64,000 nucleotides of DNA from Escherichia coli (GTDB lineage Bacteria; Pseudomonadota; Gammaproteobacteria; Enterobacterales; Enterobacteriaceae), in the NCBI RefSeq assembly GCF_003018235.1, contig NZ_CP027439.1; one strand, 5' to 3'. A program made the position numbers. Positions 6,001 to 9,000 of this stretch are shown here, one piece after another. Position 1 is the stretch's first letter. Each line of letters starts with the position of its first letter.

Positions 6001-9000
6001 CCGGGAAGTGAAAACGGTTGTTCCGGTCAGCTCAGTTGCGCCGGTAACGCCTCCCCGTCCGTTAAGAACGGGTGAGCAGACGGCAGCATTATGGATAGCA
6101 CCATATATTGATAATCAGGATGTTTATCATCAGCCATCCAGTGTGTTTTTTGTTATTAAACCATCTGCGTGGGGAAAACCACGTATTAATTAACTGGCCC
6201 TGAAGTTGTATATCAGCCGGCAATGCCGGCGGGCTTTCTGTATTCAAAATCTGCCTGTAAAACGAGTGCCCTGTGCGTGAAAAGGGATGGGCGGTAGCGT
6301 GTCAGAACATGTCGGGAGGAATATTCCGTGAGTGATGAAGCCGATGAAGCATATTCAGTGACAGAACAGATGACCATGACAGGAATAAACCGGATACGCC
6401 AGAAAATAAATGCTCATGGTATTCCTGTTTATCTCTGTGAAGCATGCGGTAATCCTATTCCGGAAGCCCGGCGGAAAATATTTCCCGGTGTGACGTTATG
6501 TGTTGAATGTCAGGCGGATCAGGAAAGGCAGAGGAAACACTATGCATAAATCAGAAACTGAAAAAATAGATTCTATCCTGGATGAACATCAACAGATATA
6601 TCGCAGACATAACCGAATAGATAACATCCTGGCGTTTTTTGCGTGTATTGCATGGATTCCCTGTATTATTGCTGCGTTCGGCGTTGATGGTATATATCTG
6701 AAAATCCTGTTTGCGGTCCTTGCCTGCTGTGGTGCGGTATGCTTTTTTATTTTCTTCTTCACCCTCCTGCCGGAATCACTCATGGTCCTCAGCCGTCAGA
6801 GCCTGCTTCAGCTTATGCGTCTGACTGAAGACGTACCGGATGCGAGACAGGAACTGCTTAACCGTCTGCTGTCCGGTAAAAAACTGACTGGTCGGAATGA
6901 AAAGGATATCCGGCGTCTCTGGCAGGATAAAGTGGATGCAATGCAGGAGTCTGCCACCCGTCAGCGTGAACAGGATACCATTCGGAAGTTTGCTGAAGAG
7001 AGTAAATCTGAATGAAAATCTGCTGTGTTTTATAACCTCATAAGTTAACTGAAGGAATATTCAGTGATTAATATTTAACTGGAGGTAATAAAGAATGCAT
7101 ACCTTTATCTTTCTTGTGCTGATGAAAAATGTTGGCGGTGGTGGTATCTGGAATATTACACCCATGCCAAATACGGATGTATGTGCACAGATCCTTCGGA
7201 GAATAGAAGCGCGTGGAGGCAGGGCTTAGGAAATTCAGGGGAGTGTATTGAAGTTAAAACAAATGAACCTTTGAACAACGTGATGGAAACACTGAATGGT
7301 GATGGGCAATGAGTGCTTACTGCTTCGAAGGAAAATGAAATGAAGTCGATATATTTAAAATCTGTTCTGGCTTTTATATTTGTTGGCGTTATGGCTATGT
7401 TGATATGTGGTCTTTTTTACAATGATTACCTTGAGCAACAACCTGCAACACCAGAACAACTGACAGAGATTACACAGGATATCCCCTGTGCAGCAGAAGC
7501 ATTTAAGGAAGCTATTAAGTCTGACACATCTGATTATCAGCCTGAACCTTTAAGTCTTGGTAAGGCAAAAGAGCTTGCATCAGCGTGTAGAGAAAGAAAC
7601 GAAATGGCAGAGGTGAAACGGGTAAGAGAAAATGAGCGCAATAAGATTCGCGAAAAACAAATTCAGGCATTAAATGATGCTCATTCAGTAAAGGAACGTT
7701 AATCCTGGTTTCCTGTTAAAAGCCTCCATCTCTTATTTGTGCTGTGGTTTCAGGAATGGCACTGCGTGATATATCCACGGCCACAGACTGATATTTTCCT
7801 TTTTTAAACGCACTAAGGAATACTCATATGAGTAATAACCCACTTGAGGCCGTCACTCAGGCGGTTAACTCCCTCGTCACAGCACTGAAACTGCCTGACG
7901 AATCAGCAAAGGCCAATGAAGTGCTGGGCGAAATGAGCTTCCCGCAGTTCAGCCGTCTGCTGCCGTACCGTGATTACAACCAGGAATCCGGTCTGTTCAT
8001 GAATGACACCACGATGGGCTTTATGCTGGAAGCCATTCCCATCAATGGGGCGAATGAGTCCATTGTGGAGGCCCTCGATCATATGCTGCGCACCAAACTG
8101 CCGCGCGGTATTCCGTTGTGTATCCATCTGATGTCCAGTCAGCTGGTTGGTGACAGGATTGAATACGGGCTGCGTGAGTTCTCCTGGTCTGGCGAACAGG
8201 CCGAACGGTTTAACGCCATTACCCGTGCCTATTATATGAAAGCGGCAGCGACACAGTTTCCGCTGCCGGAGGGGATGAATCTGCCCCTGACCCTGCGCCA
8301 TTACCGGGTGTTTATCTCGTACTGTTCTCCCTCGAAGAAAAAAAGCCGGGCTGACATTCTGGAAATGGAAAATCTGGTGAAAATCATCCGTGCCTCTTTT
8401 CACGGCGCAAAAATCACCACACAGACAGTGGATGCACAGGCTTTCATCGAGATTGTCGGGGAGATGATTAACCATAATCCGGACTCTCTGTACCCGAAAA
8501 GACGTCAGCTGGACCCGTATTCTGATCTGAATTATCAGTGTGTGGAGGACAGTTTTGATCTGAAGGTCCGGGCGGATTACCTGACGCTGGGGCTGCGTGA
8601 GAACGGCAGGAACAGCACAGCCCGTATCCTGAATTTCCATCTGGCCCGTAACCCGGAAATCGCCTTCCTGTGGAACATGGCCGATAACTACAGCAATCTG
8701 CTGAACCCGGAAATGTCCATTTCCTGCCCGTTCATCCTGACGCTGACACTGGTGGTGGAAGATCAGGTGAAAACCCACAGTGAAGCCAACCTGAAGTACA
8801 TGGACCTGGAGAAAAAGTCGAAGACCTCCTATGCCAAATGGTTTCCGTCCGTGGAGAAAGAGGCGAAGGAGTGGGGGGAACTGCGCCAGCGGCTGGGCTC
8901 CGGTCAGTCTTCTGTCGTGTCCTACTTCCTTAACATCACAGCATTCTGCAAGGATAACAATGAAACGGCTCTGGAAGTGGAGCAGGACATTCTGAACAGC

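Follow-up and report, generated by a model that had tools for sequence, protein, structure and literature searches.

The locus between traR and traC in the transfer operon of an F-like plasmid raises the question of which genes it holds and what their products might do. A preliminary description had treated it as variable cargo composed of two uncharacterised membrane proteins and ~300 bp of non-coding DNA. Judged from its sequence, the interval is an R100-type array of yfiA, a disrupted yfiB and yfiC set among the tra operon genes of an MPF_F (F-like) plasmid, read here in a window of 64,000 nucleotides of Escherichia coli contig NZ_CP027439.1. The three genes are already catalogued in R100; they are not new and represent no new kind of system.

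Gene content of the traR-traC interval

The features of the interval and its edges are as follows.

6328..6549, + strand: traR, encoding a 73-aa DksA/TraR-type zinc-finger protein (NCBIfam NF010268 TraR, E=3e-52; Pfam zf-dskA_traR, 6.9e-14)
6542..7015, + strand: yfiA (R100-type), 157 aa, with a charged conserved N-terminal segment, a two-TM hairpin and a helical conserved C-terminal domain
6542..6549, + strand: the 8-nt traR/yfiA overlap ATGCATAA, from direct sequence reading
about 6626-6769, + strand: the yfiA hairpin with its two TM segments
6863..6901, + strand: yfiA codons 108-120, the signature motif RLLSGKxLTGR(D/N)E
7038..7072, + strand: a 35-nt copy of the traR initiation region, 71% identical to 6302-6336, found by repeat search
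7081..7085, + strand: the Shine-Dalgarno sequence GGAGG of yfiB, 9 nt 5' of the yfiB ATG
7095..7312, + strand: disrupted yfiB, from alignment to four relatives and tblastn
7222..7224, + strand: the yfiB frameshift site, GGG where the four aligned relatives have GGGG
7340..7702, + strand: yfiC (R100-type, 120-aa allele), with a predicted signal-anchor TM and a helical domain
about 7361-7420, + strand: the N-terminal signal-anchor TM of yfiC
7828..10458, + strand: traC, encoding a VirB4-family ATPase, annotated traC in all matching plasmids and forming the downstream edge of the variable interval

Both reading frames of the preliminary description are real. The 157-aa ORF at 6542-7015 has two hydrophobic segments (Kyte-Doolittle, AF2) and the 120-aa ORF at 7340-7702 is N-terminally anchored (hydropathy, AF2), both products being uncharacterised and predicted to be membrane-anchored. 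Their lower GC content likewise holds, at 0.46 for yfiA and 0.386 for yfiC (0.39 for the gap between them) versus 0.518 for tra 704-14911, and a Shine-Dalgarno sequence precedes each ORF of the interval. The yfiA ATG at 6542 is nested in a longer GTG ORF (6500-7015) and lies within the end of traR. The same ATGCATAA overlap recurs in every F-like locus read (R100, loci L018, L020 and L029-L032, and the remnant in F), which suggests that translation of yfiA is coupled to that of traR. The description as variable cargo holds for the region after yfiA, to which variation is limited; yfiA itself is the part that stays the same and is tied to traR. Between 6000 and 8000 no promoter-like sites were seen (3.6 expected by chance) and no terminator-like sites on the + strand, and an Rfam scan of the interval gave no credible match; the yfiA-yfiC gap, too, yielded no promoter, terminator or RNA element. 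No paralogues of yfiA, yfiB or yfiC are present elsewhere in the window.

The ~300 bp taken to be non-coding are a broken conserved gene, homologous end to end to yfiB of R100-type plasmids with a mean column identity of 94%. Intact yfiB, as found in R100 and in L003, encodes 72 aa, beginning with a short hydrophobic stretch and containing two conserved Cys (MHxFIFLVL...GGGxWNxTPMPNTDVC...ECIEVKT). In the window the frame is broken at 7222-7224, creating a TAG stop at 7227-7229, and the ORF (7095-7229) ends early at 44 aa, the remaining sequence up to 7312 being open in the +1 frame; tblastn of yfiB on the window returns two pieces in different frames. The window copy may be a pseudogene or may reflect a sequencing error, the latter being possible because the site is homopolymeric and the frameshift occurs in one sequence only. 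In LR882059, the nearest relative, the GGGG run is intact and yfiB is interrupted further upstream by an independent nonsense change, GAA to TAA. Intact yfiB has a dN/dS of about 0.2, E. coli versus Klebsiella included, indicating purifying selection, and the gene occurs in 3,602 plasmid records, 2,344 of them from Klebsiella. In AP026457 an 81-aa yfiB is annotated, with the GTG inside the 35-nt traR-like copy as its first codon.

Conserved and variable parts of YfiA and YfiC

YfiA of the window aligns with R100 YfiA gap-free and is identical at 145 of 157 residues (92.4%). Full-length R100 similarity, the traR overlap and the hairpin with its conserved flanks and motif place it in an R100-type family (146-165 members, top E-values around 1e-94) in which every member is named 'hypothetical' and for which neither Pfam nor NCBIfam has a model. 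The two hydrophobic segments fall within roughly residues 25-84 (Kyte-Doolittle), and the AF2 model (pLDDT 77) contains helices at 3-47 and 51-75, the AF2 models being moderate in confidence (pTM 0.52-0.53). The C-terminal motif RLLSGKxLTGRDE reads RLLSGKKLTGRNE in the window; among homologues down to 21% identity L109, L110 and G112 show no variation, and R108, S111 and T116 hardly any. The N-terminal flank carries 3 K/R against 3 D/E, a weak topology bias. The C-terminal domain is predicted to sit at the cytoplasmic face. Unlike YfiB and YfiC, the soluble parts of YfiA have no conserved Cys pair.

Selection differs by segment along yfiA. The predicted cytoplasmic segments show dN/dS of 0.15-0.5 (dS reaching about 1), indicating purifying selection, against a dN in the TM hairpin of 0.7-1.5. 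Hairpin dN is 6-10 times that of the flanks at similar dS; between types A and B omega is 1.42 in the hairpin against 0.18-0.27 in the flanks. Raised dN combined with ordinary dS fits a relaxed anchor. Hairpin types A and B are both found with yfiB and yfiC, and other types with different cargo; the idea that the hairpin is a specificity determinant co-varying with downstream cargo was rejected, the sample being small. Across thousands of sequences from three plasmid backbones, ORF lengths are held even where identity falls to 21-50%.

YfiC shares 95 of 115 residues (82.6%) with R100 YfiC and belongs to the R100-type YfiC family by this similarity, its N-terminal TM and its Cys pair, in which C50 is invariant and C83 nearly invariant across the family alignment. 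A single hydrophobic N-terminal segment, modelled as a TM helix at 2-33 (AF2, pLDDT 80.5), is flanked by K/R on the N side and acidic residues on the C side. YfiB and YfiC look periplasmic, a placement favoured by their Cys pairs, by this charge pattern around the YfiC TM and by a natural fusion (P0175) in which a TraV lipoprotein signal is joined to the YfiC domain. The yfiC gene evolves with a dN/dS of about 0.8 (120-aa versus 115-aa alleles). YfiC itself was rejected as a lipoprotein, the residues before Cys23 (M-L-I or M-I-V) forming no lipobox. The soluble domains of YfiA and YfiC have a common order of elements (bridge, helix, helix, bridge, long helix); homology between them was rejected, and none is claimed because the hhalign score (10% probability, E=0.003) is too weak.

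Searches of Pfam, NCBIfam, PADLOC and PHROGs, with the window proteins and with whole alignments, returned sub-threshold noise alone. The best PADLOC match (E=0.0057, 13.9 bits) is noise, the PHROG matches (E of 0.0035 or worse) are inconsistent between members and none is significant, and the whole-length match of YfiC to the PHROG 'superinfection exclusion' (E=0.04-0.13 in 5 of 29 members) is at noise level. No match reached a curated family cut-off (Pfam, NCBIfam) or pointed to a specific structural neighbour. The remote homology search that had been put forward for the predicted structures, with models of moderate confidence, gave generic helical matches alone, and YfiA showed no recognisable fold for binding DNA, RNA or RNAP. 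Neither homology to TraS, TraT or Eex nor a position after traG was found, nor a Pfam or NCBIfam match. In the full-text literature we found no phenotype, expression or interaction data on yfiA, yfiB or yfiC. The R100 ORF after traR has been named YfhA and stated to be absent from F, and the literature names found for the R100 ORFs were YfhA and YhfA alone (PMC2762410). Some public records use the names 'yfiA' and 'YfiC protein', the latter being a label of family members in UniRef and NCBI. The suggestion of an exclusion, anti-defence or establishment function is unsupported by these searches, PADLOC and PHROGs giving no significant match; the contrary possibility, that the ORFs are known yfi-type genes without a phenotype, is largely borne out by the 92% and 83% identities and by a literature in which no phenotype was found reported.

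Distribution and turnover of the cassette

The traR-traC interval is indeed a hot spot of variable small ORFs, with at least ten architectures among F-like plasmids. The full cassette occurs in 1,172 of 3,548 matching plasmid records (about one third) and in 831 of 5,426 complete E. coli genomes (15%). It is partly deleted in L004, IS elements are inserted in the interval of some plasmids, truncated duplicates occur (yfhA, L019_d1), and Klebsiella IncFIIK plasmids have yfiB with traR and yfiA absent. F keeps a remnant of 34 yfiA codons, which marks the cassette as an ancestral feature of F-like plasmids that has often been lost; these loci show that it has been repeatedly deleted, duplicated, interrupted or swapped.

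The link of YfiA to conjugation extends beyond F-like plasmids, through distant homologues. They lie just upstream of virB1-virB4 in Salmonella VirB-type plasmids, directly behind NusG-like and RHH-like genes, and on an IncI-like contig directly behind a ProQ/FinO-family gene; one is found in a chromosomal island that also encodes TraG_N and an integrase, and two (L009/L010) have neither T4SS genes nor a regulator adjacent. A degenerate DNA motif scan of genome contigs gave 7 loci, of which 4 were true, all on enterobacterial-plasmid-like contigs. In about 81 plasmids the leading region has a yfiB paralogue immediately behind psiB-psiA, the one hint found toward an exclusion, anti-defence or establishment role.

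Possible functions and relation to known systems

Probably, yfiA, yfiB and yfiC form a co-transcribed R100-type accessory module of donor-side, non-essential modulators of the T4SS or envelope. YfiA would sit in the inner membrane, its two-TM hairpin being mostly an anchor that holds the conserved N-terminal helix and the conserved C-terminal helical domain at the cytoplasmic face, and with the transfer genes switched on it would be made in a fixed ratio to TraR. YfiB, with its signal-peptide-like N-terminus, and signal-anchored YfiC would be periplasmic proteins with one stabilising disulfide apiece, and the three together would modulate the T4SS or envelope of the donor as additions to, not components of, the core machinery. 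F transfers efficiently without the yfiABC cassette. Cassette loss that is cheap under many conditions would fit its frequent decay, that of yfiB in the window included. A role bound strictly to the T4SS is less secure, as the L009/L010 homologues lie away from T4SS genes.

The same turnover would be expected of conflict genes, with YfiA, YfiB or YfiC acting in exclusion, in protection against pilus-specific phages or recipient defences, or in establishment; at the envelope, the Yfi proteins would then contact incoming components of a T4SS or a phage. Patchy presence and alternating cargo at one locus, the low GC of yfiB and yfiC, the fast evolution of YfiC (omega about 0.8) and of the YfiA hairpin (up to 1.4), the predicted envelope location of all three proteins, the yfiB paralogue after psiB-psiA and the weak YfiC match to 'superinfection exclusion' all point this way. 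However, that match is at noise level, with no significant match to PADLOC or to PHROGs of known function; the tra operon that houses the genes is expressed in the donor and enters late, and is not part of the leading region; traS and traT lie elsewhere and F excludes normally without yfiABC; and the conserved parts of YfiA are cytoplasmic, its variable part resembling a relaxed anchor. We regard this role as unlikely. An involvement of YfiA in regulation, as a membrane tether or anti-factor of RNAP- or RNA-binding transfer regulators that couples transcription or stress signalling to the state of the envelope or T4SS, would agree with the overlap with traR in all F-like loci, with the positions of the Salmonella and IncI-like homologues right behind NusG-like plus RHH-like and ProQ/FinO-family genes, and with the predicted cytoplasmic location of its conserved parts. 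The candidate regulators would be TraR in F-like plasmids and NusG-like, RHH or ProQ/FinO-like proteins elsewhere. This evidence is one of adjacency, though, and TraR is still present in about two thirds of the plasmids that lost yfiA, Klebsiella IncFIIK has yfiB without traR or yfiA, no nucleic-acid- or RNAP-binding fold was recognised and L009/L010 have no adjacent regulator; such a partnership seems improbable to a similar degree.

A broader version, in which YfiA represents an unrecognised, model-less family of membrane-tethered cytoplasmic partners encoded behind regulators in at least three conjugative backbones, with YfiB and YfiC as conflict factors, appears quite unlikely. The backbones and regulators concerned are F-like MPF_F (TraR), Salmonella VirB-type (NusG-like) and IncI-like (ProQ/FinO-like); YfiA, located at the membrane, would there connect the secretion machine with the control of transfer genes or with envelope-stress signalling, and YfiB and YfiC would act, for example, in exclusion or defence against male-specific phages. 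That the yfi ORFs are functionless, decaying leftovers retained by their position inside an essential operon is very unlikely. The deletion of the cassette in F and most F-like plasmids, the IS insertions and truncated duplicates would agree with it, and the yfiC dN/dS of about 0.8 and the independent breakage of yfiB in the window and in LR882059 are also compatible with decay toward junk. Against this stand the clear purifying selection on yfiB and on the cytoplasmic segments of yfiA, the ORF lengths held down to 21-50% identity across three backbones, and the conserved start/stop overlap and Shine-Dalgarno sequences.

In E. coli and related bacteria, resistance and virulence genes are carried mainly by F-like plasmids, and the plasmid usually studied in the laboratory, F, no longer has yfiABC. 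If YfiA, YfiB or YfiC modulate transfer efficiency, donor stress, exclusion or phage sensitivity, conclusions based on F would miss a component of R1-/R100-type clinical plasmids. The present analysis adds a corrected annotation (three genes, one broken), the yfiA remnant in F, the wider distribution of the YfiA family and the segment-specific pattern of selection in yfiA.

Among known systems R100 (NR1; NC_002134 57698-59250) is closest, its yfhA-yfiA-yfiB-yfiC lying between traR and traC and matching the window in position and order, in YfiA and YfiC sequence, in the traR/yfiA overlap and in the annotation 'hypothetical protein'. The window differs in having no yfhA, the truncated tandem paralogue of R100, in a frameshifted yfiB that is intact in R100, and in encoding the 120-aa YfiC allele (5-aa insertion), the other allele being 115 aa. 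F shares the traR and traC flanks, and its first 34 yfiA codons still overlap the traR stop, but the rest of yfiA, yfiB and yfiC are lost, leaving a traR-traC spacing of 160 bp. Small F-type Trb/Tra proteins such as TrbD, TrbG and TraP are dispensable in the laboratory. TrbD, TrbG, TrbE, TrbA, TrbJ, TrbF, TraP and TraR are small, mostly membrane or periplasmic, variably present and encoded among essential pilus-assembly genes with which they are co-transcribed from PY (PMC5102898). The Yfi proteins resemble them in being small, interspersed, co-transcribed and variable among F-like plasmids, with no sequence relationship to the Tra/Trb products encoded in the window. TraS of F and Eex of SXT/R391 are small inner-membrane proteins of conjugative elements, with Yfi-like size and allele-like diversity. 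Unlike yfiA, traS lies after traG, no homology to TraS/Eex was detected, and F excludes without YfiA; YfiA is further set apart from TraS/Eex by its conserved soluble parts, the hairpin alone being variable.

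The traR-traC interval and yfiB

Within the window, 1-14,900 covers the half of an F-like (MPF_F) tra operon that is nearer to its promoter. The interval between traR and traC is matched by 3,542 plasmid records, nearly all conjugative and from Enterobacteriaceae, and is arranged as follows:

6328-6549, + strand: traR
6542-7015: yfiA, 157 aa
7095-7312: yfiB, disrupted
7340-7702: yfiC, 120 aa
7828-10458, + strand: traC

The preliminary description had placed two membrane proteins of lower GC here, and both ORFs are present, with two TM helices in the 157-aa protein and a single N-terminal TM in the 120-aa protein (hydropathy and AF2 models) and a GC content of 0.46 for yfiA, 0.39 for the gap and 0.386 for yfiC, against 0.518 for the operon. 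Each ORF of the interval is preceded by a Shine-Dalgarno sequence, while neither promoter-like sites nor + strand terminator-like sites were found in it and an Rfam scan gave no credible match, suggesting that it is transcribed within the long tra transcript.

The ~300 bp between these ORFs, previously taken as non-coding, instead correspond to the gene yfiB, as 7016-7345 aligns to four related plasmids with 94% column identity. At this position R100-type plasmids carry an ORF of 72 aa (MHTFIFLVLIKNINGGGSWN(V/I)TPMPNTDVC...GECIEVKT...) that is preceded by a strong Shine-Dalgarno sequence, GGAGG; the start of this ORF is shared by the window at 7095. In the window one G is missing from the G-run at 7222-7224, leading to a stop at 7227-7229, and the rest of the protein is readable in a different frame up to 7312. 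LR882059, the closest relative at 97.5% identity, retains this G, yet it carries a nonsense codon of independent origin (GAA to TAA). Intact YfiB gives tblastn matches in 3,602 plasmid records (in 3,562 of them covering 80% or more of the protein at a single place), including 2,344 Klebsiella plasmids at ~70% identity, and dN/dS between E. coli and Klebsiella copies is ~0.2; yfiB is therefore a genuine gene of wide occurrence that has been disrupted in the window's sub-lineage. In the window itself, the break could alternatively be a homopolymer sequencing error. The collections contained no identical sequence, the best match among complete E. coli genomes being 97.1%. With a short hydrophobic N-terminus, a following Gly-rich stretch and two conserved Cys, YfiB is probably a small exported protein.

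Upstream of yfiB, 7038-7072 repeats the traR translation-initiation region (6302-6336; 35 nt, 71% identity), and in AP026457 the annotated start of an 81-aa yfiB is a GTG inside the second copy of this repeat. An unannotated 67-aa YfiB paralogue immediately follows psiB-psiA in the pCFSAN000661 leading region (L017, 2495-2698) and recurs in ~81 plasmid records at 90% identity or more.

Deletion, duplication and exchange at the locus

The whole cassette (yfiA, yfiB and yfiC) is found in 1,172 of the 3,548 matching plasmid records, most others having an F-type junction, and the segment occurs in 831 of 5,426 complete E. coli genomes. In F (L002, NZ_CP011496, 743-847) a 34-codon yfiA remnant, which matches a full-length YfiA-family member at 79% identity over 28 aa, overlaps the traR stop, while pE275a_90 keeps 310 bp of yfiA. 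These remnants establish the short junctions as deletions of an ancestral cassette, and what passes for an 'intergenic' spacer between traR and traC in F is a deletion scar.

The R100 ORF yfhA, which has no counterpart in the window, is a truncated tandem yfiA paralogue whose C-terminal end is the last six TraR residues (QRKHYA) and whose junction is marked by a 28-bp repeat. With a second, independent case in L019, truncated tandem paralogues have arisen at least twice; tandem copies within one plasmid differ in the type of their two-TM hairpin.

Truncated tandem yfiA paralogues in compared plasmid loci
L028 (R100), 7699-8112
L003, 743-1156
L019, 3465-3803

The site is a hot spot, as the preliminary description held, in which several different cargoes follow yfiA. 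The constant element is yfiA itself, whose ATG overlaps the traR stop in every F-like locus read.

Cargo 3' of yfiA
yfiB and yfiC
Four-TM protein family, 125-129 aa in L018-L020 (L018, 3471-3848; L019, 3925-4311; L020, 3471-3860; also L006, 6507-6644)
76-aa and 135-aa ORFs (L031)
IS3-family insertion (L029)

The four-TM proteins, carried by other F-like lineages, are 50-85% identical to one another; the protein is cut to 45 aa in L006 and has weak similarity to a Klebsiella ORF. In Klebsiella IncFIIK (L015, NZ_CP032195, 1760-3931) the traV-traC locus has neither traR nor yfiA and holds six small ORFs of the membrane or Cys-pair kind, one of them a 72-aa yfiB homologue; two others (96 and 134 aa) have an HWKNDC...C motif in common.

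Elsewhere, the window carries mosaic cargo at 36000-60000 (a YadA-like adhesin, UbiD/UbiX decarboxylase genes, tannase and aldo/keto reductases), at most 39% of which is covered by any single PLSDB record.

YfiA and YfiC families

The YfiA family comprises 146-165 members among 5.8 billion proteins, all unnamed and from Enterobacteriaceae. A conserved N-terminal segment (1-20) and C-terminal domain (80-157) flank a hairpin of several very different types. By Nei-Gojobori estimates dN/dS is 0.15-0.5 in the cytoplasmic segments, whereas in the hairpin dN is 0.7-1.5 with dS comparable or saturated (omega 0.5-1.4). On the simplest reading of these estimates, the hairpin would serve as a hydrophobic anchor whose sequence is little constrained, and the soluble parts would carry the function.

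Full-length homologues down to ~21% identity, with the motif RLLSGKxLTGRDE in common, were recovered by an exhaustive profile search. When one genome per species was scanned with a degenerate motif, no more than four true copies emerged, each of them on an enterobacterial-plasmid-like contig. The family is therefore taxonomically narrow yet not limited to F-like plasmids, and its genes often adjoin transfer regulators or T4SS genes.

Contexts of YfiA homologues
L006: another F-like operon, likewise between traR and traC
L007, L008, L011: Salmonella plasmids; NusG-like, RHH-like, YfiA-like, (116 aa), VirB1/SLT, putative VirB2 (an unnamed ORF of 82-101 aa), VirB3, VirB4
L024: IncI-like contig; after a ProQ/FinO-family gene, with NusG-like and PilM/TcpQ genes nearby
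L009/L010: plasmids with nikA-like, HicAB, ParA and ProQ genes
L012: chromosomal island with TraG_N and integrase

The Salmonella VirB-type plasmids (L007, 5155-7446; L011, 1894-3914), in which the homologues lie between the NusG-like/RHH-like pair and virB1-virB4, are AT-rich and absent from PLSDB.

In YfiC, basic residues precede the TM and acidic residues follow it, Cys50 is invariant and Cys83 nearly so, and in a natural variant (P0175) the TraV lipoprotein signal and first mature TraV residues replace the TM and are joined to the soluble domain, which implies a deletion from traV to yfiC. Together these features are consistent with a periplasmic YfiC domain. The P0175 fusion occurs on 3 contigs, none longer than 89 kb. 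The two YfiC allele classes diverge fast (omega ~0.8).

Functional readings and the R100 ORFs

The best-supported statement, on structural and contextual grounds, is that YfiA, YfiB and YfiC all belong to the envelope and are produced in donors along with the transfer apparatus, YfiA presumably in step with TraR. All three genes are dispensable for transfer, given that F is without them, and they are often lost. We favor as probable, together with identity to the R100 ORFs, that the proteins would act as accessory modulators of the T4SS or of the donor envelope. The preliminary description is confirmed in part as to its observation and supported in part as to its interpretation; the exclusion, anti-defence or establishment roles that it suggested correspond to a rival reading in conflict functions, which we regard as unlikely. 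Pfam, NCBIfam, PADLOC, PHROGs, PDB sequence profiles and fold comparison returned nothing significant for the cassette proteins. Secondary-structure elements follow one another in the same order in the soluble domains of YfiA and of YfiC, but the hhalign probability is only 10%. That YfiA tethers regulators of the TraR or NusG type is equally unlikely, and less likely still is that the cassette ORFs are functionless remnants.

The cassette genes themselves are R100-type plasmid ORFs that had been catalogued before but are uncharacterised. R100 (NC_002134) has ORFs of 137, 157, 72 and 115 aa between traR and traC, all four 'hypothetical' in RefSeq, and our literature search found no function assigned to them. 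Public records use the names yfiA and 'YfiC protein', and the ORF directly after R100 traR was named YfhA and stated to be absent from F (Ochi et al., 2009; PMC2762410); from these sources we infer the order yfhA-yfiA-yfiB-yfiC. The second R100 ORF (157 aa) is 92.4% identical to the 157-aa protein of the window, and the fourth (115 aa) is 82.6% identical to the 120-aa protein, with a 5-aa indel between the two.
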